Shown: positions 546 through 26,878 of the stretch, piece by piece
How the letters are laid out: each line of letters opens with the position of its first letter
Position numbering within the stretch: position 1 is the stretch's first letter
IMG/VR virus record: IMGVR_UViG_3300028048_001412
Location: 109,858 to 173,857 of that record
Strand: one strand, 5' to 3'
Source: a virus
Taxonomy: Duplodnaviria > Heunggongvirae > Uroviricota > Caudoviricetes
DNA: 64,000 nucleotides
Translations under genes and position numbers: made by a program
Notes under the pieces: model-generated
What the model was told of the DNA's origin: nothing
The model's input: the letters and a program-made list of their open reading frames with translations, nothing else
Database searches by the model: none

Positions 546-1277
546 ATGATTAAGGAATGTAAAAACTGTTGGTATTTTACAAAATGTCAACAAAAAGACA
601 AAATGGAAACTGTATGTCTAGAATATGAACATACTTTAAAAGGATTTAAGAATTCTAATATTCCTCCTGTTTTATGGAGTAGTAGATCAATCAAAATAGA
701 TCCTAACAATAAAAAACATCAAGAATTAAAAGCATTAGTTAGTGATATGAATGAACTTTACAATAATAATAGAAATATTCTCCTTTATACTCATAATCAA
801 TACGGAGATAATTTAAATGGTTGGATGATTAAAACTCTTCAAAATTATATCTTTGCTTTTAGAAAATATCAATTCAATAATGAGAACGAAAATAGTGTAT
901 TTTATATAGATGCAGGTAAATTTAAAGAGATATGTCAATTACAAGTAGATAATAAAGAATTATTTTTATCTACTATAAATAAAATGCAAGGTTGTGAATT
1001 ATTAGGAATAGACAACATAGATAAGTTAAAAGGATTAAAGAATTTTAACTTTCAAGAGAAATTAGTAAATATATTAGAATATAGACAATACAGAAAACAT
1101 AAATCTAATATATTTACTTCACATATTCCTCCTTCATTATTAGATGCTAAAAATAATGATGAATGGAATTCATGGATAAATTATTTAACTAGATTTATTC
1201 TTAAAGATGGTATAAATGGACAATATGAAATTGAAGAAGATGGTGAAAATAGTTATAATGCAGGAGGTCAAGAATAA
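546..1277 (+). CDS. Hypothetical protein; stop overlaps the helicase start (TAATG), possible helicase-associated or loader protein
   Basis: 243-aa ORF with an AAGGAG RBS. Translational coupling to the DnaB-like gene. No recognisable motifs. Confidence 0.45.
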   Translation: MIKECKNCWYFTKCQQKDKMETVCLEYEHTLKGFKNSNIPPVLWSSRSIKIDPNNKKHQELKALVSDMNELYNNNRNILLYTHNQYGDNLNGWMIKTLQNYIFAFRKYQFNNENENSVFYIDAGKFKEICQLQVDNKELFLSTINKMQGCELLGIDNIDKLKGLKNFNFQEKLVNILEYRQYRKHKSNIFTSHIPPSLLDAKNNDEWNSWINYLTRFILKDGINGQYEIEEDGENSYNAGGQE

Positions 1278-2731
1278 TGAGTGAGATAAGAACAGAAAGA
1301 AATAATTCTGAATTAAAAATTCTTACTAAAATTATAAAAGATAAAGATTATAATATTCTTTCTGAAAATAATTTAACAAAGAATGATTTTAAAGATTATT
1401 TTGTTAAAGAAGGCCAGAAATTATATTTAATTTCAGATATAGTAGATTATATTGACTCTTATTATAAAACCTCTTCTCAAGTTCCAGACGAAACTACTAT
1501 TAAAACTAAATTTCCATTACTTGAATTAAATAATGATGATTATTCTAGTGAAAATAAAACATTTATAGATAATTTGAAGAAATTAAATAAAGATGATGAT
1601 TTAATAAATGCAATGACTCAAGCTAATAGAATTCATCAAACTAAAGGTGCAAGAGATGCTATTAGTTTTCTTCAAGGAGAATTGGAAAAGTTAGAAGGTA
1701 GAGGTTCTGAAGTTAAAGGATATGACTTAATTCAAAATGTAGATGACAGAATTAATGAATATGAAGAATTATTAAAAAATCCAAATAAAGCATTTGTAAC
1801 TACTGGATTAAAAGAATTAGATAATTGCATTAAAGGTTGGTTAAGAGATGAAGAATTAGTTCTTATTCAAGGTAGATCTGGTCAATCTAAAACATTCTTC
1901 TTATTAAAGTTTTTATGGGAAGCATTTGCTAGAGGAGAAAATGTTTTATTATTTGAACCAGAAATGTCTTCTAAAGTTATTGGATATAGATTAGACGTAT
2001 TAGCAGATGATAATCATGAGATATCTAATTTTTCTTTATTAAGAGGTGAAAGATTTATAGATGCTAATAAATATAAAGCTTGTTGTGCTAGATTAAAAGA
2101 ACATAAGAATCATTTCTATTATTTATGTCCTGATGATTTTGAAGATGGTTTAACTGTTTCTCAATTAAAAGCTTGGTGTAAAAAGAATAAAATTACTATA
2201 GTGGGAATAGATGGTATTGAAATTCCTGATATTATAGATGAAAGAAAAGGTTTCAAGGACGAAGAACACCTTCAGTTAACACATATAGCCGCTGATCTTC
2301 TTAGGATGTCTAAAACTTTAAAAGTTCCTGTTATTGTTACTACTCAAGCTAAAAGAACTGATAAGAAAGAAGAGTTAAGTATTAATACTATTGGCTCTTC
2401 CTACGGCATGGCGAGAAAATGCACCATCATGATTACAATTAAGAAAGAAGATAGAGAAGTAGAAATAAGAATTGAAAAGAGTAGAAATAGTACTGATAAT
2501 CAAGTTCTTAATTACAAGGTTGATCTCGATAAAGGTATATTTGAATGGGATGGAATGCCTACAATAGATGAACAAACAAATCAATCTATAAATAATAGAG
2601 AGGCTCAACCTATAACAGACGTAGATAAGGATAAGTCAGGAATAACAGAAGAGAATATAAAATTTACAGACGAGAATGGCAAACCTTACGGAGAAGATGT
2701 CTTTCTAGATGGAGGAAAAGGATTAGAATAA
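1277..2731 (+). CDS. DnaB-like replicative DNA helicase
   Basis: Walker A GRSGQSKT, and the RecA-fold C-terminal domain motif VPVIVTTQAKR (compare DnaB SQLNR). 484 aa. Confidence 0.7.
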   Translation: MSEIRTERNNSELKILTKIIKDKDYNILSENNLTKNDFKDYFVKEGQKLYLISDIVDYIDSYYKTSSQVPDETTIKTKFPLLELNNDDYSSENKTFIDNLKKLNKDDDLINAMTQANRIHQTKGARDAISFLQGELEKLEGRGSEVKGYDLIQNVDDRINEYEELLKNPNKAFVTTGLKELDNCIKGWLRDEELVLIQGRSGQSKTFFLLKFLWEAFARGENVLLFEPEMSSKVIGYRLDVLADDNHEISNFSLLRGERFIDANKYKACCARLKEHKNHFYYLCPDDFEDGLTVSQLKAWCKKNKITIVGIDGIEIPDIIDERKGFKDEEHLQLTHIAADLLRMSKTLKVPVIVTTQAKRTDKKEELSINTIGSSYGMARKCTIMITIKKEDREVEIRIEKSRNSTDNQVLNYKVDLDKGIFEWDGMPTIDEQTNQSINNREAQPITDVDKDKSGITEENIKFTDENGKPYGEDVFLDGGKGLE

Positions 2732-3804
2732 TGAAAATTACAGATAAATATATTTTAGAAGAAATGTTGGATTCTGTAAATTCTCCTAATGGAAGAAAAG
2801 CAATAGATACAATATTAAAAGGAAAACCATTACAATTATTCTATTGGAGTAGAAATGATGACGGAAAGAAAACTACTTATGAATTAATGGATGGACAACA
2901 AAGAACTCTATCTATTATGCAATTTTTAGACCATAAATTTAGTATTTTAGATGCAAATGGAAATACTCAATATGAAAATACTATATCAAAAGAAGATAAA
3001 GATAAGATTTTAGATTATGATTTATCAGTTTATATATGCGAAGGAACAGATCAAGAAAAATTAGAATGGTTTAATACAATAAATATAGCAGGATTAAAAT
3101 TAACAGATCAAGAATTAAGAAATGCAGTATATACAGGACCTTGGTTAACAGATGCGAAGTTACACTTTAGTAAACGAAATTGTGCCGGATATAAATTAAC
3201 TGAAAAATATTTTAACGGAGATCCAGCAAGACAAGAATTATTAGAGAAATTCTTAAAAGGAATAATAGAAAAAGAAGGATTAAAAACAATAGAAGATTAT
3301 ATGGCTCAACATAGAAATGATAAAGATGCAGATGAATTATGGCAATATGCAAACGATATAATCAATTGGATAAATAAAACTTTCACAAATTATAGAAAAA
3401 TAATGGATGGATTAGATTGGTGTCATTTATATAATAAATATCATCAAAATACATATAATACTCAAGATATAGAAAAAACAATAGATAAATTAATGAAAGA
3501 TGAAGATATAGAGAAAAAGAAAGGCATTTATGAATATGTATTAGATGATAAAAATCCATTCCGTGAGAAATATCTGAATTTGAGAGCCTTTCTAGATAAA
3601 GATCAACAAACAGCATATGAAAAACAAAAAGGAATATGTCCAATATGTGGAAAACATTTTAATAAAGATGAAATGGAAGCAGATCATATAATTCCTTGGA
3701 GTAAAGGAGGTTCAACAGATATAAATAACCTTCAAATGCTATGTAAATCTTGTAATAGACAAAAATCATCAGGAAATGCACCTAAAACTACTAAAAAGAA
3801 ATAA
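2731..3804 (+). CDS. DUF262 (ParB/Srx-like, DGQQR) + DUF1524/HNH nuclease fusion, GmrSD-like type IV restriction-like protein
   Basis: N-terminal DGQQRTLSI motif. C-terminal EADHIIPWSKGGSTDINNLQMLCKSCNRQKS HNH motif. Start overlaps the helicase stop (TAATG). Confidence 0.7.
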   Translation: MKITDKYILEEMLDSVNSPNGRKAIDTILKGKPLQLFYWSRNDDGKKTTYELMDGQQRTLSIMQFLDHKFSILDANGNTQYENTISKEDKDKILDYDLSVYICEGTDQEKLEWFNTINIAGLKLTDQELRNAVYTGPWLTDAKLHFSKRNCAGYKLTEKYFNGDPARQELLEKFLKGIIEKEGLKTIEDYMAQHRNDKDADELWQYANDIINWINKTFTNYRKIMDGLDWCHLYNKYHQNTYNTQDIEKTIDKLMKDEDIEKKKGIYEYVLDDKNPFREKYLNLRAFLDKDQQTAYEKQKGICPICGKHFNKDEMEADHIIPWSKGGSTDINNLQMLCKSCNRQKSSGNAPKTTKKK

Positions 3805-3829: not shown

Positions 3830-3841
3830 GTATAATATAAT
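3830..3841 (+). promoter_or_regulatory. GTATAATATAAT motif 3 nt before the primase ATG
   Basis: Motif instance. No SD between the motif and the ATG at 3845. Confidence 0.35.
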
Positions 3842-3844
3842 AAG

Positions 3845-4813
3845 ATGATAAAATTCAACGTGAAAATAGAACAATTCCTAAATGATTTAAGAAGAGAAAG
3901 TGGAAAAGACATATTCAACAACGTCAAACAAAGAGGAGATGATTATCAATGTAGTTGTCCATTTCATAAAGATATAAAACCATCATTTGGAATAAATAAA
4001 GATGGAATATGGCATTGTTTTAGTTGCGGAGAAAAAGGAAATGCTATTCAATTAGTTCAGAAAATATTAGATATTGATAACTATAAAATAGCTGAAAAAT
4101 GGATAGAAGATAAATATTATAAGTTTATTCTTGAAACTCCTACTATTCCAACATTAGATTTTACATTAAAAGAAGAAAATAAAATAGAAGTTCCTAAAAA
4201 ACAATATATACCAAAAGAAGAATTAAATAAATATAAATTCTATCATCCTTATATGTATGAACGTAAATTGACTAATCAAATTATTCAAATGTTTGATATA
4301 GGTTATGATAAAGATTTTATACTAGAAAAGAAAGATCCAAATGGAAATATTAAATACGATCATTTTGGACCTGCTATTACATTTCCAGTTAAAGATATAA
4401 ATGGAAATATTTTATTTATAGCTAGAAGATGTATAAATAATAAGATATTTCATTATCCTGATGGAGCAGAAAAACCTTTATATGGTGTTTATGAATTATT
4501 TAAATATCATAAAGACGTTAAACAAATATGGGTCTGTGAATCAATTTTAGATTCGCTCTATCTATGGACTCAAAATAGAGTTGCAGTAGCATTAAACGGA
4601 TTAGGAAGTTCAGAACAATATAGAGAATTAGAATCATTAGGAATAAAAGAAATGATTTTAGCATTAGATAATGATAAAGCAGGTGAAATAGGAACCAGAG
4701 GAATAATAGATAATGTTAAAAATGTGTATTTTAGAAGAGCTATTTTACCTGAAAATCGTAAAGATATCAATGAATGTACAGAAGAAGAGATAAAAAATTT
4801 AAAAATAGTGTAA
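3845..4813 (+). CDS. DNA primase (DnaG-like: CHC2 zinc finger + Toprim)
   Basis: CSCPFHKDIKPSFGINKDGIWHCFSCGEKGNAIQLV zinc-binding motif. Toprim-like ESILDSL...ALDNDKAGE. Confidence 0.8.
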   Translation: MIKFNVKIEQFLNDLRRESGKDIFNNVKQRGDDYQCSCPFHKDIKPSFGINKDGIWHCFSCGEKGNAIQLVQKILDIDNYKIAEKWIEDKYYKFILETPTIPTLDFTLKEENKIEVPKKQYIPKEELNKYKFYHPYMYERKLTNQIIQMFDIGYDKDFILEKKDPNGNIKYDHFGPAITFPVKDINGNILFIARRCINNKIFHYPDGAEKPLYGVYELFKYHKDVKQIWVCESILDSLYLWTQNRVAVALNGLGSSEQYRELESLGIKEMILALDNDKAGEIGTRGIIDNVKNVYFRRAILPENRKDINECTEEEIKNLKIV

Positions 4814-4830: not shown

Positions 4831-4842
4831 GTATAATATAAT
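4831..4842 (+). promoter_or_regulatory. GTATAATATAAT motif upstream of HD-domain gene
   Basis: Motif instance, followed by an AAGGAG RBS and the ATG at 4898. Confidence 0.4.
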
Positions 4843-4897
4843 TATATAAAAGATCTGGGTAAAAATAGCCAGGGAAACAAATAAGGAGAAAATATCA

Positions 4898-6597: not shown

Positions 6598-7980
6598 TTG
6601 AAAATTAATGATGAATATATTATTAAAATATTTACTAGAAAAGATAATAGAATAGATAGCCATAAATGTAATGATAAATGGTTGAATGAAAATATAGAAA
6701 TCAAAAAATATTTAGAATCTCGATTTGATTATTTCAATGGAAAATATTCAGATGTAATAAATCTTATAAAAAATAAAGTTAAAGAATGGCCTAAATGCCC
6801 GATTTGTAAAGAATATTTAAATCATCCTGAAAATAAGCATTGTTCTTATGCTTGCGAACAAAAAGATCCTTTAGTTAATGATAAAAAGAAAAATACTTAT
6901 TTAAATAATTATGGTGTAGAACATCCTTTAAAATCAAAAGAAATAAAGAAAAAAATAAAACAGACTAATTTGCAAAAATATGGAGTAGAAAATCCTTCTC
7001 AAAACGAAGAAATTAAAGAGAAGAAAAGACAAACTAGTTTAAAAAATTATGGAGTTGATAATCCATTTAAATCTGAAGATATTAAAGAAAAAATAAAAGA
7101 AATAAATTTACAAAGATATGGATTTGAAAATGTCTTTCAAAATGAACAAATAAGACAAAAATATAAAAGCACATGTAAAGAAAAATACGGTGTAGAAAAT
7201 CCATCTCAATCTGAAAAAATAAAGAAAAAGAAAGAAAATACTAATTTAAAAAACATAGGATTCAAAAATCCATTACAATCAGAAGAAATAAAGAAAAAAG
7301 TAAAAAATACTAACTTACAAAAATACGGTGTAGAAAATCCATCTCAATTGGAAGAAATTAAGAAGAAAAAAGAAGATTCTTGTCTGAAACATTATGGAGT
7401 AAAGAGTCCATTACAATCGGAAGAAGTAAAAGAGAAAAGTAAAAAAACATGTCTTAAAAAATATGGAGTTGAAGTAGCAGCTAAATCAGAAATAGTAAAA
7501 GAGAAATTATCAAAAACTCTTTCAACTATGGAATCAAAAGAAAAACAATATAATACCAAAAAGAAAAATAATTCCTTTAATACTTCAAAACCCGAAGAAG
7601 AAATATATGAAAAATTATGTAAACAATTAGGAAAAAATAATATTTTAAGAAATTATAATAAAGATTCTAGATATCCGTTTATGGTGGATTTCTACATTAA
7701 ATCAAAAGATCTATTCATTGAATGTAATTTTAACTGGACACATGGTGAACATTGGTTTAATGAAAACTCTAAAAGCGATTTAAAAATTTCACAAAAATGG
7801 AACGAAAAATCTAAAGATTCAGATTTTTATAAAATAGCATTAAAAGTATGGACAGTAAAAGATGTAGAAAAACGAGATACTGCCAATAAAAACGGATTAA
7901 ATTACATAGTATTTTGGAAAGAATCTGATTATGAAAAGTGGATTAGTAAAGGATGTCCAAAGAAATTTCAAAATAAATAG
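6598..7980 (+). CDS. Putative homing endonuclease (family A): N-terminal Cys/His zinc finger, nine tandem ~25-aa YGVENPxQSEEIKKK repeats, C-terminal Vsr/DUF559-like nuclease; TTG start
   Basis: N-terminus KINDEYIIKIF shared with 17541 and 25338. CPICKEYLNHPENKHCSYAC zinc finger. Repeats from aa ~98-305. C-terminus DFYIKSKDLFIECNFNWTHGEHWF. Confidence 0.65.
   Translation: MKINDEYIIKIFTRKDNRIDSHKCNDKWLNENIEIKKYLESRFDYFNGKYSDVINLIKNKVKEWPKCPICKEYLNHPENKHCSYACEQKDPLVNDKKKNTYLNNYGVEHPLKSKEIKKKIKQTNLQKYGVENPSQNEEIKEKKRQTSLKNYGVDNPFKSEDIKEKIKEINLQRYGFENVFQNEQIRQKYKSTCKEKYGVENPSQSEKIKKKKENTNLKNIGFKNPLQSEEIKKKVKNTNLQKYGVENPSQLEEIKKKKEDSCLKHYGVKSPLQSEEVKEKSKKTCLKKYGVEVAAKSEIVKEKLSKTLSTMESKEKQYNTKKKNNSFNTSKPEEEIYEKLCKQLGKNNILRNYNKDSRYPFMVDFYIKSKDLFIECNFNWTHGEHWFNENSKSDLKISQKWNEKSKDSDFYKIALKVWTVKDVEKRDTANKNGLNYIVFWKESDYEKWISKGCPKKFQNK
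6889..7520 (+). repeat. Nine tandem ~75-nt coding repeats (TxLxKYGVENPxQSEEIKKKxKx)
   Basis: Periodic repeats are visible at both the protein and nucleotide level inside 6598..7980. Confidence 0.7.
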
Positions 7981-7991: not shown

Positions 7992-8885
7992 ATGGAAAAA
8001 TTTGAAGGAATAACAAAAGAACAATTATTAGAAGAATGTTTAAATTATCCATTTCCAGGTAATACTAAATGGGAATCTAATAATCCGATATGGGATTCAT
8101 TTGTTCCTCCAAATAAAAGTCCTAGAGAAGCATGGAAAGATAGAGAATGTTTAAAAAAAGCGATAGATAATTTATATTGGATATTAGATAAATCGATAAA
8201 AGAAAATAAATATGAAGATTTTGTAGAAAAACATAGAAAAGAATTTAAAAACTTTAAAAAAGGCGATAAATTAAGATTAATGCAATTAATACTTTTTAGA
8301 TTTACTGTAGTAAAAATAGCACCTAAAGTAACAGCATTAAAAGCAACTGATATGTTAAAGATAATAGATGAAAGTGAAATTGATTTATCATCTGGAGTAT
8401 ATTGTCCAATGGCCGGATTTGGAGGAATAGTAGAAGCAAGCAAAAGATGGTTTAAAGAAAGAAAATTAGATTATGAAGATAAAATAGAAAGTTATGATAT
8501 AAATAAATCATTTGTAGATTATTATCATTTCACGGGACAAAGAGATATATTTGAAAAAGTAATAAAAACCAATAAAATATGTATAGTATGTCCACCATTT
8601 GGAAAACAATTTGAACATTGGAAAGGAACTCCTGATAAAATGTCAGATATAACATTTCTAGAATGGTATAATATAATAAAAAAACAAATAAAAGCGAAAG
8701 ATTACATAATAATTGGTCCTGAAATAGATAAAACAGGGACAGGATCTAATAAAGGATTAGATTCTCAAGGTAAAAAAATTAATGGATTATTTTCCAAAAC
8801 AATAGGAATTCAAAGATGGACAGATGATTTAGTAAAAGACGCAATAAATAATCCTGAAAAATACAAAAAAATATTAAAAAATTAA
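7992..8885 (+). CDS. Hypothetical protein; weak resemblance to gamma-class N6-adenine methyltransferase motifs
   Basis: VYCPMAGFGG (FxGxG-like) then ~68 aa later IVCPPFG (xPPF). Cys in place of D/N/S is atypical. Confidence 0.25.
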   Translation: MEKFEGITKEQLLEECLNYPFPGNTKWESNNPIWDSFVPPNKSPREAWKDRECLKKAIDNLYWILDKSIKENKYEDFVEKHRKEFKNFKKGDKLRLMQLILFRFTVVKIAPKVTALKATDMLKIIDESEIDLSSGVYCPMAGFGGIVEASKRWFKERKLDYEDKIESYDINKSFVDYYHFTGQRDIFEKVIKTNKICIVCPPFGKQFEHWKGTPDKMSDITFLEWYNIIKKQIKAKDYIIIGPEIDKTGTGSNKGLDSQGKKINGLFSKTIGIQRWTDDLVKDAINNPEKYKKILKN

Positions 8886-8886
8886 G

Positions 8887-8899
8887 GTATAATATAAAT
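8887..8899 (+). promoter_or_regulatory. GTATAATATAAAT motif immediately abutting the polymerase ATG
   Basis: Motif ends at 8899 and the ATG is at 8900. Confidence 0.35.
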
Positions 8900-10753
8900 A
8901 TGAATGAATTTACATCTTTTCACAAATTAATAGAAGATAAGAAATTAGATGAAAACGTAGCAAAACAGTTAATATTTTATGATGCTGAAGTTTTTCAAAA
9001 TGATTGGATGTTCGTAATAATAAATCCTTATACAAAAGAAACTAAAGTAATAGCTAATAATAGGGATGAATTATTTAAATATTTTTTGTCTCATAAGGAA
9101 TTTATTTGGATAGGATATAATACAACTCATTATGACCAATATATATTAAAATGTATATTGATGAATCTTAATCCTAAAGAAATGAGTGATTTCTTAATTA
9201 AAGATGGAGAAATGGGATGGAACTTCTTCAGAAAGAAAAAAATATACACTGCTGATTTAGCTCAATGTGAATATAATAACTATGATTTATTCCAAATAAA
9301 TGATGGTGGATTAAAAAAACTAGAATCATTTATGGGAAATGACATAGAAGAAACAGATGTGGATTTTGATATAGATAGAAAATTAACAGAAGAAGAATTA
9401 AAACAAACTGAAAAGTATTGTATTCATGATGTAGAACAAACAATAGAAGTATTTGTAAAAAGAATAGATTCATTTAATGCAAGATTGAGTTTATTAAAAA
9501 TATTCAATCTTAATTATAGTTATATGAATAAATCTGATGCTCAATTAACTGCAACTATATTAGGAGCAAAAAGACCTGCAGGAAGAGGAGAAGATGAATT
9601 TAATATAACATTACTTCCAAATATTAAGTTAGATAAATATAAAGAAGTATTAGAATGGTATAAAAATCCAGAAAATAGAGATTATAAGAAATCTTTAAAT
9701 ATAGATGTAGCAGGGGTTCCTCATACATTTGCTTGGGGTGGATTACATGGAGCAATAAAGAAATTTCACGAAGATGGATACTTTGTAAATATGGACGTTA
9801 CTTCATATTATCCTTCTTTAATGATAGAATATAATTTATTATCTAGAAACGTAGATCAACCAAGTAAATTTAAAAATATTTATAATCAAAGAGTATTATT
9901 TAAGAAACAAAAAGATGTAAGAGAAAAACCATTAAAAATTCCGCTAAATGCAACTTATGGTGCTTGTAAAGATAAATTTAGTCAATTATATGACCCTCTT
10001 CAAGCTAATAACGTCTGTTGTAATGGGCAATTATTTTTATTGGATTTAATAGAAAAATTAGAACCATATTGCAAAATAATACAAAGTAATACCGATGGTA
10101 TTTTAATTCAAGTAGTTCCAGCAACTAAAGCTCAATGGGTTAAAATATATGAAGTTACTCAAGAATGGCAAAAAAGAACAAAAATGAATCTTGATTTTGA
10201 AAGATTTGTTTCTGTATATCAAAAAGACGTAAATAACTATATCATTGTAGGAGAAGATGGTAAATATAAATCAAAAGGCTCATATGTTAAAAAGCAAAAT
10301 GATTTAGATAACGATCTTCCAGTGGTAAATAAAGCAATGAAAGATTATATGATAAATAAAGTTCCAGTAGAGGATACTATAAATAATTGTGATAATTTAT
10401 TAGATTTTGCTAAAACGGTTAAAGTTACAAGTGCTTATTTATATGGAGAAAAAGGAACATTTGATGATAATGGAGTAGAACAATACGAAAAACAAACCAA
10501 TAAAACTTTTAGAATATTTGCATCTAAAAATCCTAAAGATGGTGGAATATATAAAGCAAAAATGAAAGATAAGAAAGATAAAGAAACTGGAAATATTACT
10601 AAAGAATTATCTCATGATAAATTTGCTAATACTCCAATAAAGTGCTTTTTTAGAAATGGAAATATTCAAGGTGAAAAATGTCCAGAAGATTTAGATAAAC
10701 AATGGTATATTGATTTAGCAAATGAAAGATTAAAACAATTTGGTGTAAAATAA
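8900..10753 (+). CDS. Compact family-B DNA polymerase with 3'-5' exonuclease motifs
   Basis: Exo I FYDAEVF, Exo II YNTTHYDQYIL, Exo III YCIHDVEQT. Motif A DVTSYYPSLM, motif B KIPLNATYGACKDKFS, motif C region IIQSNTDGILI (NTD instead of DTD). Confidence 0.6.
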   Translation: MNEFTSFHKLIEDKKLDENVAKQLIFYDAEVFQNDWMFVIINPYTKETKVIANNRDELFKYFLSHKEFIWIGYNTTHYDQYILKCILMNLNPKEMSDFLIKDGEMGWNFFRKKKIYTADLAQCEYNNYDLFQINDGGLKKLESFMGNDIEETDVDFDIDRKLTEEELKQTEKYCIHDVEQTIEVFVKRIDSFNARLSLLKIFNLNYSYMNKSDAQLTATILGAKRPAGRGEDEFNITLLPNIKLDKYKEVLEWYKNPENRDYKKSLNIDVAGVPHTFAWGGLHGAIKKFHEDGYFVNMDVTSYYPSLMIEYNLLSRNVDQPSKFKNIYNQRVLFKKQKDVREKPLKIPLNATYGACKDKFSQLYDPLQANNVCCNGQLFLLDLIEKLEPYCKIIQSNTDGILIQVVPATKAQWVKIYEVTQEWQKRTKMNLDFERFVSVYQKDVNNYIIVGEDGKYKSKGSYVKKQNDLDNDLPVVNKAMKDYMINKVPVEDTINNCDNLLDFAKTVKVTSAYLYGEKGTFDDNGVEQYEKQTNKTFRIFASKNPKDGGIYKAKMKDKKDKETGNITKELSHDKFANTPIKCFFRNGNIQGEKCPEDLDKQWYIDLANERLKQFGVK

Positions 10754-16967: not shown

Positions 16968-16979
16968 GTATAATATAAT
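16968..16979 (+). promoter_or_regulatory. GTATAATATAAT motif
   Basis: Motif instance upstream of 17008. Confidence 0.4.
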
Positions 16980-17007
16980 TATAAATTATTTTTAAAGGAA
17001 ACAAATT

Positions 17008-17540: not shown

Positions 17541-18503
17541 GTGAATATTAATGATGAATATATATTATCTTTAGATATATTTGATACTAAAGGAAGACTT
17601 AAAGCAATATCATTTGAAAAAATACTTGAGAACAATTCTGAAATTAAAGAATATCTTAAAAATAGATATAATGATAAATTTGTAGATTATAAAACCGCTT
17701 TATGGAGAATTAGAAATAATATAGATGAATGGCCTAAATGTCCAACTTGTGGAAAATTATTAGATAATTTAGAACATAAACATTGTTCTCCAAGATGTGC
17801 TTCATTAGATCCGGAAGTGCAAAAGAAAAATGAAGAAACTAATTTAAAATTATATGGTGTTAGAAATGTATTTTGTTTAGAATCAGAACATAAAAAAGCA
17901 AAGAAAGAATGGGTAAAATCAATAGTTAAGAAATATGGTTCATTAAAGAATTTCTATAAAATACGTTCAGATTTAGGAAATAAAACGATTAAAGAAAAAA
18001 TAGAAGAAGATGAACATTTTTGGGATAAAAGAAATGAAAAGAAAAAAGAAACTATAGATTCTATATTAAAGAATGATCCTGATTGGTATAAAAGATTAAA
18101 AGAGAAAGAGATTGAAACTAAAAAGAAAAATAATTCTTTAAATGCTTCGAAAGAAGAAGATAGAATATATGAAAAATTATTAAATATATTTAACAAAGAT
18201 GATATTATAAGAGAATATTCTGAAAAAAGATATCCATTTCATTGCGACTTTTATATTAAATCAAAGGATTTATTCATTGAATGTAATTTTCATTGGACTC
18301 ATGGCTTTCATTGGTTTGATAAAAATAATAAATCTGATTTGGAAATAGTACAAAAATGGAAAGATAAAAATACTAAATTCTATGATATCGCAATAGAAGT
18401 TTGGACTAAGCGTGATATACTAAAACGAGATACTGCATTAAAAAATAAATTGAATTATTTGGTATTTTGGAACACAAAAGAATTTAAAAATTACAGTTTT
18501 TAA
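17541..18503 (+). CDS. Putative homing endonuclease (family A, short form with ~2 degenerate repeats); GTG start
   Basis: N-terminus NINDEYI. CPTCGKLLDNLEHKHCSPRC zinc finger. C-terminus RYPFHCDFYIKSKDLFIECNFHWTHGFHWF. Confidence 0.6.
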   Translation: MNINDEYILSLDIFDTKGRLKAISFEKILENNSEIKEYLKNRYNDKFVDYKTALWRIRNNIDEWPKCPTCGKLLDNLEHKHCSPRCASLDPEVQKKNEETNLKLYGVRNVFCLESEHKKAKKEWVKSIVKKYGSLKNFYKIRSDLGNKTIKEKIEEDEHFWDKRNEKKKETIDSILKNDPDWYKRLKEKEIETKKKNNSLNASKEEDRIYEKLLNIFNKDDIIREYSEKRYPFHCDFYIKSKDLFIECNFHWTHGFHWFDKNNKSDLEIVQKWKDKNTKFYDIAIEVWTKRDILKRDTALKNKLNYLVFWNTKEFKNYSF

Positions 18504-20402: not shown

Positions 20403-20414
20403 GTATAATATAAT
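20403..20414 (+). promoter_or_regulatory. GTATAATATAAT motif
   Basis: Motif instance upstream of queE. Confidence 0.4.
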
Positions 20415-20443
20415 TATAAAATAAATAGGAAGGAAATTAAAAT

Positions 20444-21193
20444 ATGGTAAAAGATGGAAAAATAGCATTAGTTGAAATTTTTAAATCTATTGATGGAGAA
20501 GGTTTTCACTCAGGTCAACCTACTGTTTTCATAAGAACTTTCGGATGCAATCTCCACTGCAGTTTCTGTGATACTTCATATTCTTTAAATGAAGAAGAAT
20601 ATAAGAAAACATATAATAAAGATTTATTATGGATGACAGCTGAAGAAATAGTAAATAAGTGTAATGAATTGGAAAAAGATTTTAAATATAAATCTGTTTG
20701 TTTAACAGGTGGAGAACCTTTAATAGAAGAAAATAAAGATTTTATGTTAAATCATCTTATACCATTATTATTAGATAATAAATATGCAGTGAATATAGAA
20801 ACAAATGGTGCTGTAGATTATAAACCATATAAAGATAAATTCGGAGAACCTGTAATATTAGACCCTTATGGAAATAGATATGGAGTAAGTATTATAGCAG
20901 ATTATAAACTTCCATATTCTAAAATGAATAAATTGATGAAATGGGAAAATTTATCAATTTATAGTGAATATGATTTAATTAAAATGGTAATTAGTGATGA
21001 TCCTGAAGATTGGAAAGAGTTAGAAAAAGTATGTCAATCAGGAACCAAAGCAAAGTTGTATTTAAGTCCTTGTTTTGGAGAAGTGACAATGTCAAAAATA
21101 CCGGAATTTGTAATGAATCATCCAGAATATAATATCACGGCTCAATTGCAAATCCATAAATTCTTCTGGGACAAAGATAAGATAGGAGTGTAA
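20444..21193 (+). CDS. queE: 7-carboxy-7-deazaguanine synthase (radical SAM)
   Basis: IDGEGFHSGQPTVFIRTFGCNLHCSFCDT (CxxxCxxC and the QueE-type N-terminus). Confidence 0.8.
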   Translation: MVKDGKIALVEIFKSIDGEGFHSGQPTVFIRTFGCNLHCSFCDTSYSLNEEEYKKTYNKDLLWMTAEEIVNKCNELEKDFKYKSVCLTGGEPLIEENKDFMLNHLIPLLLDNKYAVNIETNGAVDYKPYKDKFGEPVILDPYGNRYGVSIIADYKLPYSKMNKLMKWENLSIYSEYDLIKMVISDDPEDWKELEKVCQSGTKAKLYLSPCFGEVTMSKIPEFVMNHPEYNITAQLQIHKFFWDKDKIGV

Positions 21194-21197: not shown

Positions 21198-22085
21198 ATG
21201 ATGAATATAAATCAAGAATTATTAGAATTTATTAAAGACAATTATCAGAAGAAATTCGGAAGTTTAGATACATTTGAAGAAAATTATAAATTATATTGTT
21301 CTTTACCTTCTTTTAAAGCAAGTGAAAATTTTCATGAAGTATTTGGACAATTAAATGTAATAAATTCAGAAGATCCAAATGCTTTAGATAAAGAGAGTGA
21401 ATTTGTAAATAGAGAAGAAAAATTAGGAGATAATACTAAATATACTGATTATTTAGATTGTCAAAAAGAATTAAAACCTGAAATACATTGGATAATGAGA
21501 TCTGTCGCTCAATTCTATATGATAAAAGTATTTGATGCATTAAAAATAGATCAAAAAGATCCAAATATAGCAATAAATGCTTTAGGTAAAGGAACTCCAG
21601 GCAGAATTGTTAAAATGTGGAGTGGCGCTAATCCAGAAGATACATCAGAATTATTATCAGGAAGGTGGAATAAAGAACCTGCGCTATCAGTATTTCCAAA
21701 TGATGGTTCAACTACAGGAGGAGAAATAATCACTACTCCTATTACTAAAGAAGTAGATGTAGTTGCTGTTTGTAGTCACCATTTTCTTCCATTTTCAACA
21801 TTAGAACCAAATGCAAAAGCAATAATTACATATATACCACAAAAGCATTTAATTGGAATATCTAAATTGCAAAGATTTACTAAATGGGCTAGTGCAAGAG
21901 GATGGTTACAAGAAGATTTAACAACTTATTTAGGAACAACAATTAAAAGAATAAGTGAATCTGAAGATGTAAAAGTAGAACTGATCAATTTAGTTCATGG
22001 ATGTGAAAAGTTTAGAGGTGCTTATTCTAAAAATGGTAATTTAACAACTTATTATAAATCAGGAGTGTTCAAAGATGTCAAGTAA
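21198..22085 (+). CDS. folE: GTP cyclohydrolase I with ~100-aa N-terminal extension
   Basis: GTPGRIVKMW, VCSHHFLPF (CEHH zinc motif), TYIPQKHLIGISKLQRF, HGCEKFRG. Confidence 0.85.
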   Translation: MMNINQELLEFIKDNYQKKFGSLDTFEENYKLYCSLPSFKASENFHEVFGQLNVINSEDPNALDKESEFVNREEKLGDNTKYTDYLDCQKELKPEIHWIMRSVAQFYMIKVFDALKIDQKDPNIAINALGKGTPGRIVKMWSGANPEDTSELLSGRWNKEPALSVFPNDGSTTGGEIITTPITKEVDVVAVCSHHFLPFSTLEPNAKAIITYIPQKHLIGISKLQRFTKWASARGWLQEDLTTYLGTTIKRISESEDVKVELINLVHGCEKFRGAYSKNGNLTTYYKSGVFKDVK

Positions 22086-22959
22086 AGAATATTTTTCTAA
22101 AGAGTATCAAAAAGATCTTTATGAATATATGGCTGATAGAACGTGGCTTAAAAAAGGTAAAGAAATGCATTTACCTGAAAAAAAATTAAAACGTAAGTTT
22201 GATATGATAAATTTTGAAAAATATCCTGGTGTAAATGAGGAGAGAATTTGGAATGTTAAAGAAAATACTAAAGAACAATATACTAATCCTAAATTCTTAC
22301 AAAATTATAAAGCTGCAAATAAAGAACAATTAAAATTATTAAAAAAAGCTGATAAAAAAGATATTCTATTATTATCTCTATGTGCAAATAATAAACCTTA
22401 TTCTGATAATGCTACTATAAGATGTGTAAAAAACATTGCTGATAAAAATAATATGGATTATGCTATATTATCAAAAACGGTTTGGTTTATAGAACCTTTT
22501 GATTTTTCAGTTAGACCTCCCGCATTATGTTATAATGAACCTCATGATTGGTTCTATTATAGTATAGCATTTAAGAAATATTGTGATAAAAAGAAATTAA
22601 AAGAAAAATTCGAAGAATTTAATAATAGTTGGTTTCCTGGATTTGAAATGCCTCAATATATGGTAGAAGAAATATCTAAACAATATAAAGCAATAGTGAT
22701 TTTTCATAATGGTGGGGCTAATGAATATTTAAGAAGATTTGGGAGTGAACATTATAAGCCATTTGAACCTAGTTGTCCAGTTTATAATATAGATACTTCT
22801 AAAGAAATATATATGAAAGAATTAAGGCCTATATTTCATTCAGGTGGATTATGCCATCAAAGATATTATACCAGTAAAAAAGCAACTAATGAAATAGCAA
22901 ATATTTGTAAAAATATAAGAAAAGATGTTATTCCTCAAAAAAATCTTATGAATAAGTAA
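22075..22959 (+). CDS. Hypothetical protein embedded in 7-deazaguanine cluster (overlaps folE by 11 nt)
   Basis: 294-aa ORF with no recognisable motif. Translationally coupled to folE. Confidence 0.5.
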   Translation: MSSKEYFSKEYQKDLYEYMADRTWLKKGKEMHLPEKKLKRKFDMINFEKYPGVNEERIWNVKENTKEQYTNPKFLQNYKAANKEQLKLLKKADKKDILLLSLCANNKPYSDNATIRCVKNIADKNNMDYAILSKTVWFIEPFDFSVRPPALCYNEPHDWFYYSIAFKKYCDKKKLKEKFEEFNNSWFPGFEMPQYMVEEISKQYKAIVIFHNGGANEYLRRFGSEHYKPFEPSCPVYNIDTSKEIYMKELRPIFHSGGLCHQRYYTSKKATNEIANICKNIRKDVIPQKNLMNK

Positions 22960-22978: not shown

Positions 22979-23668
22979 ATGAAACCAGATCTAAAAATAA
23001 AGAATAGTGATTTTAAATACTTTGAGATAAATCCAGAGAAATATAGTAGAGAATATGTAATGTTATTAGCTCAGGATTATCATAAAAATCCCAATAAAGA
23101 AATTCCAAAAGCTGATTATAAGATGCTGGACAATGGAGCTGCCGAAGGAGAACAACTATCTAATAAAGATTTGATAGAAGTAATTAAATTAGTAAAGCCG
23201 GATGAAATTATATATCCTGATATAATGGGAGATAAAGATGCTACTATAAAATCATCTACTGAATTTTATAATGAATTACCTGATGATTTAAAGAATTCTT
23301 TATCTAAACTAGGTGTAATTCATGGAAAAACATTTAAAGAATTTCAAGAATGTGCTGAATATTATATGGAAAGCGGTAAAATTAAAGTAGATGTAATAGG
23401 AGTTCCTAAATATTCTGTATATTCTTTAAAGAATATGTTTGTTAGAGTTAAATTAGCAAAATGGTTGAATGAGAAATATCCAAATGTAAAAATTCATTTT
23501 TTAGGAATGAATGAACCTTTTTATATTATAAAACAAGCAATAGAAAAAGGAATGATTATAAGAAGTATAGATAGTATTGTTCCTTATCAATGGGAAAAAG
23601 AAAATTCAAGTATTCCATTTGATTATTATTTAAGAGATCCAGATATTTCTTATAATGAATTAAAGTAG
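22979..23668 (+). CDS. Hypothetical protein; weak TGT/DpdA-like (DNA-guanine transglycosylase) resemblance
   Basis: MLDNGAAEG (compare TGT DSGGFQ) and IRSIDSIVPYQW (compare TGT MFDCVLPTR). 229 aa is short for TGT. Genomic context supports the assignment. Confidence 0.3.
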   Translation: MKPDLKIKNSDFKYFEINPEKYSREYVMLLAQDYHKNPNKEIPKADYKMLDNGAAEGEQLSNKDLIEVIKLVKPDEIIYPDIMGDKDATIKSSTEFYNELPDDLKNSLSKLGVIHGKTFKEFQECAEYYMESGKIKVDVIGVPKYSVYSLKNMFVRVKLAKWLNEKYPNVKIHFLGMNEPFYIIKQAIEKGMIIRSIDSIVPYQWEKENSSIPFDYYLRDPDISYNELK

Positions 23669-23676: not shown

Positions 23677-23688
23677 GTATAATATAAT
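23677..23688 (+). promoter_or_regulatory. GTATAATATAAT motif
   Basis: Motif instance upstream of the mazG-like gene. Confidence 0.4.
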
Positions 23689-23719
23689 TAGAGAATATTT
23701 TCAGGAGGTTTTAGTTAAT

Positions 23720-24092: not shown

Positions 24093-24539
24093 ATGAGATT
24101 AATTTTAATTGGACCTGATTGTTGTGGGAAATCAACCTTAGCAAAAAAATTATCAAAACAGTTAAATGTTCCTATAATAAAAGGAATAAGAGGTGATTTT
24201 GATCAAATAAATAGACAAAAAGAACCATGTATATTTGATAGAATTCCTAATATAGATGAAAGAATCTATACTAATTCTAAAATAACGGATAAAGATATAG
24301 AACCTTTAAAAGATAATTGTATTGTTCTTTATATAGAAACTCCTTTATCAGTATTAAAAGAAAGATTTGAAATTAGAGGAGATGAAGAAGTTAATTTAGA
24401 TGATATCCAAAGAGTAAAAGAAAATTATGAAAAATGGCTATTTATGGAAAATAGAATAAATTTAATGATGATCACTTATGATTATACTAAAAAAGATATA
24501 GATAGAATAATTGAAGCATTTAATAAATATGGTAAATAA
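24093..24539 (+). CDS. P-loop nucleotide/nucleoside kinase (dNMP kinase or polynucleotide-kinase-like)
   Basis: N-terminal MRLILIGPDCCGKSTLAKKL Walker A. Confidence 0.5.
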   Translation: MRLILIGPDCCGKSTLAKKLSKQLNVPIIKGIRGDFDQINRQKEPCIFDRIPNIDERIYTNSKITDKDIEPLKDNCIVLYIETPLSVLKERFEIRGDEEVNLDDIQRVKENYEKWLFMENRINLMMITYDYTKKDIDRIIEAFNKYGK

Positions 24540-24552: not shown

Positions 24553-25314
24553 ATGAAAGCAATAGTTAGTCTTTCTGGCGGTAGAGATTCTGCAACTTGT
24601 TTAGGAGTGGCTGTAGAAAAATATGGAAAAGAAAATGTATTTGCTATGGGATTTGAATATGGAAGTACTCACCCACAAGAATTAGAAGCAGCACAAAAAA
24701 TAGCTGATTATTATGGCGTTCCTTATCAAATAGTTAAAATAGATCCAAGTATATTTGAAGGTTCAGGTTGTTCTATGTTAGAATCAGAAGGATTATCTCC
24801 TGAAAAAGGAAAAACATATGAGCAATTACAAGCAGAAAATGAAGGAAAAGTAGCAACTTATGTTCCAGCAAGAAATACATTATTTTCAGCATATGTATTA
24901 GCAAAAGCAGAATCATTAGCCCAAAAATATAATGATGAAGTAACTATTATTTTAGGTCAACACGCAGATGATTCAGGATTTTATGTAGATGAAAATGGAG
25001 TAGAACATTTAGATTATACTAAATCAGCATATCCAGATACTTCAGTAGAATTTGTAGAAGCTTTTGCAAAAGTAGCTGAAATTAGTTCGGTTGGAAAAGT
25101 AAAATATTGGTCACCATTTATAAAGAATCATAAATATGAATTATTACAAATAGGTTCAAAATTAAAGAAACCTGTTCCATATAATTTATGTATATCTTGT
25201 TATAAACCAGAATTAGGTGAAGATGGTAAATATCATGAGTGCGGATTATGTGCAACCTGCTTGGACACTTTGAAAGCATTAAAGAAAGCAGGATTACCAG
25301 AAAAATTAAATTAA
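24553..25314 (+). CDS. queC: 7-cyano-7-deazaguanine (preQ0) synthase
   Basis: PP-loop SLSGGRDS. C-terminal zinc-cluster cysteines (CISC...C, CGLCATC). Confidence 0.8.
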   Translation: MKAIVSLSGGRDSATCLGVAVEKYGKENVFAMGFEYGSTHPQELEAAQKIADYYGVPYQIVKIDPSIFEGSGCSMLESEGLSPEKGKTYEQLQAENEGKVATYVPARNTLFSAYVLAKAESLAQKYNDEVTIILGQHADDSGFYVDENGVEHLDYTKSAYPDTSVEFVEAFAKVAEISSVGKVKYWSPFIKNHKYELLQIGSKLKKPVPYNLCISCYKPELGEDGKYHECGLCATCLDTLKALKKAGLPEKLN

Positions 25315-25337: not shown

Positions 25338-26462
25338 TTGAAAATTAATGATAAATACATCTTGAAAATTTTTATTGGAGAGAATCAAAGAGTTAATGGT
25401 TGGAGATGTTCTTATAATTGGATAAATGAAAATCCAGAAATCAAAGAATATCTAGAGACTAGATTTAATTATTTCAATGGAAAATACGGAGATGTAGTTA
25501 GATTAATAAGAGATGGATTTGATGAATGGCCTAAATGTAAAACATGTAATGAATTTTTAAAAGAACCATTTACTCAAGATAAACAACCTTCATATCATAT
25601 TTATTGCAGCAATAAATGTAAGAATATAAATGAAGAAAAGAAACAGAAATCTATAAATACTTGTTTGGAAAAATACGGAACTCCAGTTTCTTCTCAATCC
25701 GAAATAGTTAAAGAAAAAGAGAGAAATACTATAAATTCTAGAACTGAAGAAGAGAAAAATAAAATAACTTCTAGAGCTAGAAAAACTTATATTAAAAAAT
25801 ATGGAGTAAATTGGATTTCAAAATCAAAGGAATTTAAAGATAAATTCAAAGAGACTTGGGATAATAAATCAGAAGAAGAATTACAAGACATAAAAAATAA
25901 AAAAGAAAATACTTGCTTAGAAAAATACGGCGTGAAATATTATTTTGAAACAGAAGAATTTCAAGAAAAATCAAAACAAACTATTCTAGATAAATACGGA
26001 GTAGAGTACACGCATCAATGCAAAGAAATATTAGATAAAGTTAATGAAACTAAACATAAAAATGGAACATTTAATACATCGAGGCCTGAAGAAGAATTTT
26101 ATAAATATCTTTTAAATAATTTTTCGGAAAATGATGTAAAAAGACAATATTATAAAGATTCTAGATATCCATTCAGATGTGATTTCTATATTAAATCTTT
26201 GGATTTATTTATAGAGTTAAATCTTTCTTGGGTTCATGGTGGACATTGGTTTAATAAAAATTCAAAAGAAGATTTAAAAATATTAGATAAATGGAAAAAT
26301 AAAAATACAGATTATTATAATGCGGCTATAAATACATGGACGAAGAGAGATTTATTAAAAAAGAAAACAGCAATAAAAAATAAGATTAATTATCTTGTTT
26401 TCTGGACTGAAAAAGAAATAAATAATTTAATAAAAGGAGAAAATAAATTATGTATAGTTTAA
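25338..26462 (+). CDS. Putative homing endonuclease (family A, ~4 degenerate repeats); TTG start; inserted between queC and queD
   Basis: N-terminus KINDKYILKIF. CKTCNEFL zinc finger. C-terminus RYPFRCDFYIKSLDLFIELNLSWVHGGHWF. Confidence 0.6.
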   Translation: MKINDKYILKIFIGENQRVNGWRCSYNWINENPEIKEYLETRFNYFNGKYGDVVRLIRDGFDEWPKCKTCNEFLKEPFTQDKQPSYHIYCSNKCKNINEEKKQKSINTCLEKYGTPVSSQSEIVKEKERNTINSRTEEEKNKITSRARKTYIKKYGVNWISKSKEFKDKFKETWDNKSEEELQDIKNKKENTCLEKYGVKYYFETEEFQEKSKQTILDKYGVEYTHQCKEILDKVNETKHKNGTFNTSRPEEEFYKYLLNNFSENDVKRQYYKDSRYPFRCDFYIKSLDLFIELNLSWVHGGHWFNKNSKEDLKILDKWKNKNTDYYNAAINTWTKRDLLKKKTAIKNKINYLVFWTEKEINNLIKGENKLCIV

Positions 26463-26878
26463 GAATTAAATTCGAAATTGCCTACGCTCATAGATTAATG
26501 ACTTCCTATTCCGCCAGTTGCAGGGGACTCCACGGACATAACGGAGTGTGTGAAATATTAATAGGAAATGATAAATTAAATGAAGATATGATGGTGGTAG
26601 ATTTCAAAAAAATTAAAGAAATTGTGAAAGAAACTTTAGAAGAAAAATATGATCATTCAACTATTCTTTATAAAGATGATCCATTAGCAGAAGCAGTAAA
26701 ACCTTTCTGTAATCCAGCTAAATTTCATTTATTTGAAAAGAATCCAACAGCTGAATATATGGCTGAAAGATTTACAAATGAATTACAAGAAATATTAGAT
26801 AAAGAGTTACCGGGAACTAAAGTATTATCATTTAGTTTTGAAGAAACATCAAATAATAAAGCAATATTTGAAAGTTAA
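26450..26878 (+). CDS. queD: 6-carboxy-5,6,7,8-tetrahydropterin synthase
   Basis: FEIAYAHRL and CRGLHGHN motifs. Confidence 0.8.
   Translation: MYSLRIKFEIAYAHRLMTSYSASCRGLHGHNGVCEILIGNDKLNEDMMVVDFKKIKEIVKETLEEKYDHSTILYKDDPLAEAVKPFCNPAKFHLFEKNPTAEYMAERFTNELQEILDKELPGTKVLSFSFEETSNNKAIFES

Follow-up and report, generated by a model that had tools for sequence, protein, structure and literature searches.

An NTDG-type family-B DNA polymerase, compact and with Asn in motif C, in a phage-like replication module

Does a gene that resembles a family-B DNA polymerase (PolB), and in which Asn replaces the first motif-C Asp, encode an active enzyme, and is its small size unusual? We addressed this question for an ORF located at 8900..10753 on the plus strand of a 64-kb stretch of viral DNA (the window); all features given below lie on the same strand. 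The ORF encodes 617 aa from an ATG start, with the coordinates and motifs given in a preliminary description of the DNA. Between the beginning of the in-frame, stop-free region at 8858 and the first exonuclease motif, ATG 8900 is the single ATG, GTG or TTG codon, and it is therefore the sole start that retains the exonuclease residues D28 and E30. The resulting N-terminal extension of 23 residues is also found in the closest relative (P0002).

The protein matches the PHROG family phrog_1252, annotated as DNA polymerase, with E=8e-166. The number of homologues exceeds 7,900, and the query matches 4,199 clusters at 50% identity and 1,003 phage records. Among the phage matches listed, which include the Paenibacillus phages LincolnB/Wanderer (47% identity) and crAss-like phages, most are annotated as DNA polymerase. 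Judging from the phrog_1252 score and from the numbers of homologues and clusters, the ORF and its polymerase matches are not due to chance. A Pfam scan of the query gave no PolB match (PF00136/PF03104) even at E<=10, an NCBIfam scan gave no polymerase match, and a precomputed PF00136 match is present in 8 of the 120 homologues listed. The family assignment therefore rests on PHROGs, on comparison of the family profile with PDB sequences and on the fold. The AlphaFold model (pLDDT 93.4, pTM 0.90) has the exonuclease, palm, fingers and thumb arrangement of family-B DNA polymerases. The polymerase of Enterococcus phage IME199 was considered as a relative and discarded as a 95-kDa, phi29-like, protein-primed enzyme of another family.

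All three PolB exonuclease motifs, Exo I (DxE), Exo II (Nx2-3(F/Y)D) and Exo III (Yx3D), are present. Exo I, FYDAEVF (residues 26-32, 8975..8995), contains D28 and E30, which are invariant in a 15-sequence alignment and at least 90% conserved among 45 homologues. Exo II, GYNTTHYDQ (residues 72-80, 9113..9139), has invariant columns at N74, Y78 and D79, and its G(F/Y)N..YD pattern is retained in diverse phage PolBs. The Y173 and D177 columns of Exo III, YCIHDVEQT (residues 173-181, 9416..9442), are also invariant and are conserved superfamily-wide. Proofreading would be performed by a DEDD site composed of D28, E30, D79 and D177.

The polymerase motifs are equally well preserved. Motif A, DVTSYYPSLM (residues 299-308, 9794..9823), contains the catalytic D299 and matches the Dx2SLYPS motif in alignments with Pol alpha, KOD and Sso PolB1. 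Y304 occupies the position of the Tyr in SLYPS, which we take to be the PolB steric gate. Motif B, KIPLNATYG (residues 346-354, 9935..9961), lies in the fingers and aligns with Kx3NSxYG of the same solved PolBs, with K346, N350, Y353 and G354 conserved. The KxY-equivalent, QKDVNNY (10220..10240), aligns with KKNY / KKKY of solved PolBs. Here N445 replaces the Lys of KxY while Y447 is kept, and (K/R)DVNNY is retained superfamily-wide, including the crAss, 9g-like and KL1 polymerases. As with the Asn of motif C, conservation of all other catalytic residues is complete or almost complete. The motif alignments and residue conservation bear out the view that this is a family-B polymerase with intact exonuclease and polymerase motifs, and the gene encodes a real proofreading enzyme.

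Motif C reads IIQSNTDGILI (residues 393-403, 10076..10108), with N397 at the site of the first Asp and the catalytic D399 retained, as had been noticed previously. N397, T398 and D399 are encoded by AAT ACC GAT at 10088-10096. The preliminary description left open whether this is a lineage-specific variant or whether another part of the protein holds the true motif C. When the family profile is compared with solved PolBs, qsNtdG falls on ygDtdS of S. solfataricus PolB1 (E=1e-9), and the NTD motif likewise lines up with its counterparts in Pol alpha, KOD and E. coli Pol II (ygDTDs/ysDTDg). In the predicted structure, a check that had been proposed at the outset, the NTD turn is bordered by strands 392-397 and 400-404 and sits at the tip of the palm beta-hairpin. 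QSNTDG (residues 395-400) is invariant among homologues: the Asn is present in 120 of 120 close homologues among the matches listed, NTD[GAS] in 145 of 146 full-length representatives of the 50%-identity clusters, and NTDG in 14 diverse phage PolBs, including crAssphage (SANTDGIVI).

A motif C elsewhere in the protein finds no counterpart in these comparisons. The two-aspartate DTD form is absent from the query, which has the second Asp (D399) alone. Four DxD triplets occur, at residues 153-155, 157-159, 468-470 and 597-599. None of them coincides with motif C when solved PolBs are aligned, and none is conserved superfamily-wide. Conservation of the D470/D472 pair of the 'LDxDLP' stretch is confined to the closest subfamily, and the pair lies after KxY, at the entry to the thumb. 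On the alignments and the predicted model, NTD is the true motif C, which bears out the first of the two alternatives, and its Asn is a lineage trait under selection.

The closest tested relative is GP55 of Lactococcus phage 1706, a HelPrimPolB 'four-in-one' replicase that is active as both polymerase and exonuclease (PMC12205980). Alanine mutants of its D712/E714 lose exonuclease activity, and the D949 alanine mutant is polymerase-dead (PMC12205980). Homology between the PolB domain of GP55 and the query extends over Exo I through motif C (BLASTP E=3e-10, identity 23%), and D712/E714 align with D28/E30 and D949 with D299. Its motif C is VKTDS, in which the first Asp is also absent, with KTD where the query has NTD. 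GP55 is a 1,317-aa protein with N-terminal helicase and primase domains, whereas the query is a stand-alone PolB in which the HelPrimPolB architecture (N-terminal SF3 helicase + PrimPol fused to PolB) is absent. Fused forms with an NTD motif C occur among relatives with 43-44% identity, namely P0177 (1,298 aa) and P0183 (1,358 aa). In the literature searched we found no NTDG-type enzyme with biochemical characterisation; the nearest tested relative is the one with KTD.

Loss of the first Asp could mean that the polymerase is catalytically dead and that the protein is kept as an exonuclease or scaffold. The canonical DTD is indeed missing, the Pfam PolB model fails on the query, and PolB groups with a single Asp, although accepted members of the family, were historically called inactivated (PMC7544198). 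However, the Asn shows no decay but is invariant, and conservation over thousands of sequences extends to D299, K346, N350, Y353, G354, D399 and Y447. The KTD enzyme GP55 is active, and piPolBs, which also lack the first motif-C Asp, polymerise efficiently (PMC7544198). The same family, moreover, provides the polymerase of crAss-like and many small phages. We consider a dead polymerase most unlikely. Instead, the enzyme would use ordinary two-metal catalysis through D299 of motif A and D399, the second Asp of motif C. N397 would sit at the site of the first, non-essential Asp of the DTD in other PolBs, and its most likely role is hydrogen-bonding or structural, at the tip of the palm hairpin. 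What the Asn contributes, for example to metal preference or fidelity, is a question for the whole family, including the crAssphage polymerase.

The size of the protein and its NTD motif had been described as unusual, and here the preliminary description did not stand. The enzyme is compact relative to RB69 gp43 (905 residues) and to archaeal PolBs (about 760), but not within its own family, whose median length is 594 aa over 150 representatives. Of the two refuting outcomes named in the preliminary description, the first, a canonical DxD motif C at another position, is not observed, and the second, a size typical of a known PolB subgroup, is. 'NTDG' was published in 2011 as the characteristic motif of the 'PolIIphages' subgroup, part of whose definition is that its members resemble E. 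coli Pol II more than they do the other cellular PolBs (Kazlauskas & Venclovas 2011, PMC3201878). A 2020 PolB survey described divergent MotifC and KxY in the crAss-like and HelPrimPolB groups (PMC7544198). The text portion of the supplements to that survey contains no Enterococcus, Paenibacillus, Listeria, Leuconostoc or 9g phages.

In tblastn searches the query matches crAss-like, 9g-like and other phage NTDG PolBs with E 1e-15 to 1e-26 and coverage of 40-98%. The matches include crAss-like cr1_1 (E=1e-22, 84% coverage), crAssphage, 9g-like, KL1 and Barba, as well as NTDG-type polymerases of Listeria, Leuconostoc and Enterococcus phages. Like the query, these phage PolBs have the NTDG motif C, the diverged KxY ((K/R)DVNNY), DEDD exonuclease motifs and motifs A/B, lack an N-terminal domain and are 560-780 aa long. 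Some members have a clamp-binding-like tail, while the closest subfamily of the query ends after the last conserved helix. Among the closest known enzymes, those of the Paenibacillus phages LincolnB/Wanderer, Staphylococcus PI-Sepi-HH2 and Bacillus BMBtp15 share 46-47% identity over 96-97% of the length. LincolnB/Wanderer-type polymerases have the same architecture and motif set, including LIQSNTDG. They belong to 35-40 kb siphophage genomes with a large primase annotated downstream, whereas the query is accompanied by a DnaB-type helicase and a DnaG-type primase. By sequence, the query is best placed in the NTDG-type group ('PolIIphages'), close to the crAss-like and HelPrimPolB groups within the EpsilonN-like clade (Kazlauskas et al. 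2020). Small size and the Asn-Thr-Asp motif have been known hallmarks since 2011 of this very large phage polymerase group, which includes crAssphage. The compactness of the polymerase stems from short fingers and from the absence of an N-terminal domain, with Exo I beginning at residue 26; this build is normal for its family. It is an ordinary new member of an already described group with thousands of members and textbook traits, and 'NTDG-type family-B DNA polymerase' is the fitting annotation for the gene.

A compact PolB could also be a protein-primed, phi29-like polymerase. The length is near that of phi29 polymerase (571 residues, 1xhx), whose motifs had been used for comparison in the preliminary description; both enzymes have the generic PolB motifs and lack an N-terminal domain, and the C-terminal region of the query is beta-rich (strands 505-584 in the model). 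In contrast to phi29 polymerase, the query lacks the TPR1/TPR2 insertions, with spans of 47 residues between motifs A and B and 53 between B and C, has NTD instead of DTD and resides in a primase context. The structural similarity to phi29 polymerase also ranks below that to RNA-primed PolBs. No terminal-protein gene came to light in the course of the other searches. Protein priming is therefore scarcely credible for this enzyme.

The genomic setting is consistent with synthesis from RNA/DNA primers. The gene is flanked by a helicase, a primase and an annealing protein on one side and by topoisomerase II and UvsX on the other. The DnaB-like replicative helicase (1277..2731) matches phrog_19 (E=1e-43) and PF03796 DnaB_C, and the DnaG-type primase (3845..4813) matches phrog_47 (E=3e-47) and contains Zn_ribbon_DnaG and Toprim_2 domains. 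We propose that the polymerase would extend primers made by this primase, behind the DnaB-like helicase. T4/RB69 gp43 shares with the query the family-B fold, a proofreading exonuclease and RNA-primed synthesis in a module with DnaB/DnaG-type helicase/primase, topoisomerase II and UvsX. It differs in its length of about 900 aa, N-terminal domain, DTD, KxY and C-terminal clamp-binding tail, none of which the query has.

The source genome is large, AT-rich and phage-like, and the identical protein on record is found on a 284-kb contig. No sliding clamp was detected in the window by BLASTP or phmmer with three phage clamp queries (the clamp and DpdA searches used 9g-like, KL1 and PAJD-1 proteins). 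The C-terminus of the query ends at a conserved helix and lacks the clamp-binding-like tails of cr1_1 (QLNLF) and KL1 (APLFF). The ORF at 8900..10753 is the sole DNA polymerase detected in the window, and the 10 kb to the right of it, seen on a 245.5-kb ENA contig (ERZ27252073 k141_303868), contain neither polymerase nor clamp. Four other ORFs (22075-22956, 22979-23665, 17541-18500 and 7992-8882) have no match in Pfam or NCBIfam. Comparison of 22075-22956 and 7992-8882 with PDB sequences gave nothing useful, and the sole homologue of 22075-22956 is a 99%-identical copy of itself.

These observations bear on whether the enzyme is an accessory or specialised polymerase (translesion, repair or modified-nucleotide-tolerant) that acts beside a main replicase encoded outside the window. 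The window covers 64 kb of a larger genome, and a giant genome is an atypical setting for this type: those relatives nearest to the query (46-51% identity) are mostly located on 20-50 kb viral contigs, compared with the 284-kb contig of the identical protein. Neither a clamp nor a clamp-binding tail was found, a preQ0 pathway lies 10 kb downstream, and archaeal B2 PolBs, which also have no first Asp, are TLS enzymes (PMC7544198). On the other hand, the gene belongs to the core replication module, with topoisomerase II, the helicase and the primase close by. Its proofreading site is intact, its GC and GC3 are equal to those of its neighbours, and small phages carry members of the same family as their annotated DNA polymerase, beside a primase. 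We regard an accessory role as unlikely. Very probably, the gene encodes an active, proofreading, RNA/DNA-primed NTDG-type PolB that is most likely the replicative polymerase of its phage-like genome.

The preQ0 (7-deazaguanine) gene set near the polymerase comprises FolE, QueD, QueE and QueC together with a small P-loop kinase, all in the window, where no DpdA transglycosylase was detectable (BLASTP, phmmer). The 7-deazaguanine-modified Queuovirinae use this polymerase type as their replicase. From this combination one could suppose that the polymerase itself incorporates 7-deazaguanine nucleotides, either before replication or during it, the family-wide Asn and altered KxY forming a relaxed active site for modified dNTPs, which we consider very unlikely. 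A milder possibility is that a polymerase of the type found in 20-50 kb phages, without a recognisable clamp, may serve as the sole replicase of a ~284-kb genome and be expressed from a leaderless mRNA. The locus is in any case an example of an NTDG polymerase in an apparently very large, T4-like replication module without a visible clamp.

The start of the gene was previously described as directly following a sequence motif, with no leader. This is correct, and the motif is genuinely enriched: 15 copies occur at <=1 mismatch against 3.9 +/- 2.2 expected, 14 of them on the plus strand. A generic sigma-70 scan around the polymerase gene was uninformative (35 sites against 30 expected). The promoter-like element GTATAATATAAAT (8887..8899) has a 0-nt gap to the polymerase ATG. 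With TATAAT taken as the -10 hexamer, transcription would start (+1) at the A of ATG 8900. The only Shine-Dalgarno (SD)-like sequence at this start is a 4-nt AAGG at 12-nt spacing; in 39 of 67 genes the SD match spans 5 nt or more, with 5-13 nt spacing. The motif GTATAATATAAWT adjoins the polymerase ATG and lies 2 nt from the primase ATG, an arrangement that suggests leaderless mRNAs and offers, at two replication genes, a testable case of leaderless expression.

The ORF at 8900..10753 (+), here called polB, is borne out as real and encodes a 617-aa family-B DNA polymerase (PolB). It is a fresh member of a PolB lineage that has already been described, NTDG signature included. The ATG at 8900 is the sole ATG, GTG or TTG codon downstream of the preceding in-frame stop and ahead of Exo I. 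The start is secure because the resulting 23-residue N-terminal extension is shared by P0002, the closest relative (71% identity). The exonuclease and polymerase motifs named in the preliminary description can all be located in the protein: Exo I (FYDAEVF, residues 26-32), Exo II (GYNTTHYDQ, 72-80), Exo III (YCIHDVEQT, 173-181), motif A (DVTSYYPSLM, 299-308), motif B (KIPLNATYG, 346-354) and motif C (IIQSNTDGILI, 393-403), in which N397-T398-D399 are encoded by AAT ACC GAT. The GC content of the gene (25.4%, GC3 12.1%) is the same as that of its neighbours, and polB is therefore no recent arrival.

Several lines of sequence comparison and structure prediction concur in identifying NTD as the real motif C. 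A single-query search of PDB sequences places SNTDG opposite GDTDS of Pol alpha. The best match to a profile built from 45 homologues is S. solfataricus PolB1 (E=1e-9), followed by KOD-type polymerases, E. coli Pol II, Pol zeta and Pol alpha, and in every printed profile alignment qsNtdG stands opposite ygDtdS or ysDtdG. The profile alignment also sets QKDVNNY opposite the KxY motif, with Y447 at the Tyr and N445 at the Lys position. In the AlphaFold2 model built on the homologue alignment (mean pLDDT 93.4, pTM 0.90), the NTD turn lies between strands 392-397 and 400-404, forming the classical palm hairpin, and D299 is found at the end of strand 289-300, before helix 303-310. It had been suggested that the true motif C might lie elsewhere, but none of the four other DxD triplets in the protein is a hidden canonical motif C; the other option offered, a lineage-specific variant, is the correct one. 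D470/D472 (consensus LDYDLP) is C-terminal to KxY, kept only in the closest relatives and missing from the wider superfamily.

The motif-C Asn, judged by its distribution among sequences, is universal in the polB family. The protein matches phrog_1252 'DNA polymerase' (E=8e-166), has more than 7,900 homologues in a 90%-clustered collection and matches 4,199 50%-identity clusters, 785 of them at E<=1e-30. QSNTDG is present in 120/120 close homologues among the matches listed. The best 150 of the 4,199 cluster representatives comprise 145 with NTD[GAS], one with NSDG and four N-terminal fragments. All 14 phage PolBs in a GenBank set read xNTD[GA], 13 as NTDG and one as NTDA (Enterococcus RG1), and have (K/R)DVNNY in place of KxY; the set consists of Paenibacillus LincolnB, Enterococcus RG1, Listeria P40, Leuconostoc phiLNTR2, Burkholderia KL1, crAss-like cr1_1, crAssphage C0521BW15, Vibrio V07, 9g-like Escherichia HdSG1, Klebsiella JustaPhage, Rheinheimera Barba, Pseudomonas PAJD-1, Rhodobacter RcPescado and the query. 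NTD is thus lineage-specific, as proposed, but not unusual. Nor is the compact size, which had also been called unusual: 617 aa is typical, with a median of 594 aa among the 50%-cluster representatives. The small size reflects the lack of an N-terminal domain (Exo I starts at residue 26) together with short fingers, modelled as helices 321-336 and 342-355. polB is at most 71% identical to any protein on record and ~50-57% identical to the bulk of the family.

Larger and interrupted forms can also be observed. P0002 (L016:121-3147) is a 1,008-aa fusion that carries, C-terminal to the polymerase, an extension of ~390 aa with no assigned function, and several other representatives (P0126-P0128, P0153, P0177, P0183) reach 770-1,360 aa through N- or C-terminal additions. 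In the Klebsiella phage JustaPhage (Jedunavirus, L009:2369-5362), the NTDG polymerase is divided just past DVNNY: an inserted gene, gp55, whose annotation is type 2 secretion system protein, separates gp56 from gp54. The arrangement resembles either the insertion of a mobile element or a split polymerase.

In ternary complexes of RB69 gp43, the metals are bound by the Asp of motif A and the second Asp of motif C; the first is no direct ligand. The fold of polB is established, and with the exception of the first Asp of motif C the protein retains all residues that PolBs use in two-metal catalysis and proofreading. D299 and D399 would bind the two catalytic metals, and N397 may have a structural or hydrogen-bonding role. 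Primer-independent PolBs polymerise efficiently without the first motif-C Asp, and further single-Asp groups, PolB_SITDG and B2/G2, have been described (Kazlauskas et al., PMC7544198). Lactococcus phage 1706 encodes a HelPrimPolB, GP55, that was obtained in purified form; D949A abolishes its synthesis and D712A/E714A its exonuclease activity (PMC12205980). In the BLASTP alignment with polB (E=3e-10), D712/E714 correspond to D28/E30 and D949 to D299. With VKTDS as its motif C, GP55 is thus a relative of demonstrated activity in which the first Asp is likewise missing. The literature searched yielded no characterisation of an NTDG enzyme itself.

As noted in the preliminary description, polB lies directly behind a sequence motif: GTATAATATAAAT at 8887-8899, a promoter-like element, touches its ATG. 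With at most one mismatch, the recurrent form GTATAATATAAWT occurs in 15 copies, 14 of them on the coding (+) strand, against 3.9 +/- 2.2 in shuffles (0/100 reach 15). Copies include 494-506, 3830-3842, 4831-4843, 8887-8899, 16968-16980, 20403-20415, 23677-23689, 33700-33712 and 35624-35636. Six copies between genes precede a start codon by 27-54 nt, five of them with a Shine-Dalgarno (SD) match of 5-6 nt. Three others are 0-2 nt from the start codon: 0 for polB and for a 52-aa ORF at 35637, 2 for the primase (3845). If TATAAT is a -10 hexamer, the usual spacing would place +1 on the A of these three ATGs. Among 67 genes, 39 are preceded by an SD match of 5 nt or more, spaced by 5-13 nt; the primase has none, and polB shows nothing beyond a 4-nt AAGG spaced by 12 nt. 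Translation of polB from a read-through transcript is possible, and leaderless expression of polB, the primase and the 52-aa ORF can reasonably be inferred from the motif positions. The polymerase on the contig of the closest relative has an ordinary start, ...AAAAGGAAATAAATATG, without a GTATAATATAAWT-type motif. The 35 nt 5' of two copies, within 33665-33712 and 63269-63316, are nearly identical (ccttgattttttgtaataaatatcatataatatta vs ccttgattttttctcaaaaatatcatataatatta), and a longer, ~48-nt element is therefore repeated 30 kb apart.

polB and its subfamily end in a conserved terminal helix, ...RLKQFGVK, without a tail (10727-10750). By contrast, the polymerases of cr1_1 (L006; ...QLNLFNFDEY, peptide ...KPKQLNLFNFDEY) and KL1 (L005; ...APLFF, clamp gene adjacent) end in beta-clamp-binding-like peptides. 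Three phage clamp queries found no sliding clamp in the window. The 297-aa ORF directly upstream of polB (7992-8885) occupies the clamp-gene position of 9g-like and KL1-like phages but has no similarity to those clamps, nor any match in Pfam, PHROGs, NCBIfam or PDB sequences. Methyltransferase-like motifs (CPMAGFGG ... CPPFG) can be seen in it by eye.

A complete gene set for the synthesis of preQ0 (7-deazaguanine) is located ~10 kb downstream of polB: QueE (20444-21193), FolE (21198-22085), a P-loop kinase (24093-24539), QueC (24553-25314) and QueD (26450-26878). By its gene content, the set implies that the DNA would be modified. Searches of the window with BLAST, phmmer, Pfam and NCBIfam revealed no DpdA/TGT transglycosylase. 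In Queuovirinae (L008, L011), a polymerase of this type adjoins folE-dpdA-clamp. That polB itself incorporates 7-deazaguanine nucleotides, as the gene neighbourhood and the failure to find DpdA in this quarter of the genome might suggest, is highly improbable and conflicts with the conclusion, reached in the literature, that every phage 7-deazaguanine modification known so far takes place after replication (PMC10516641). Two unannotated ORFs, 22075-22956 and 22979-23665, lie inside the Que cluster; for the former, a 99%-identical copy is the only recorded homologue.

The window (25.6% G+C) carries nearly all genes on the + strand, in the order helicase, HNH/GmrSD-type endonuclease, primase, HD hydrolase, single-strand annealing protein, repeat-rich homing endonuclease, the 297-aa ORF, polB, two small ORFs, topoisomerase II (two subunits), YkuD-domain protein (Pfam), UvsX-like recombinase, QueE, FolE, kinase, QueC, QueD, Cas4-like nuclease, resolvase, SbcD, SbcC and RNA ligases. 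Four tRNA genes (Ser-GGA, Gly-TCC, Glu-TTC, Leu-TAG) lie at 46388-46629 and 63464-63782. No second DNA polymerase was detected among the window ORFs scanned. The tRNAs, one-strand layout, topoisomerase II, UvsX, SbcCD and RNA ligases fit a very large phage with T4-like modules. A recorded contig of 284,018 bp carries a protein identical to polB. Of the 80 closest IMG/VR relatives (46-51% identity), by contrast, 78 come from contigs no longer than 51 kb, and a polymerase of this type is therefore uncommon in a genome of such size. The same genome, or one nearly identical to it, is also represented by a second assembly (ENA ERZ27252073 k141_303868, 245.5 kb).

Homing-endonuclease-type genes are numerous (2731-3804, 6598-7980, 25338-26462, 41177-42097, 57435-58271; also L100:9313-10245). 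Helicase and primase are separated by an HNH/GmrSD_N gene, other HNH genes occur elsewhere, and the replication module and the Que cluster are each interrupted by one repeat-rich DUF7487 protein. Three ORFs in a row (58297-58830, 58940-59473, 59606-60139) encode exactly 177 aa each and are probably tandem paralogues; one has a weak DUF5684 match in the contig annotation (L101).
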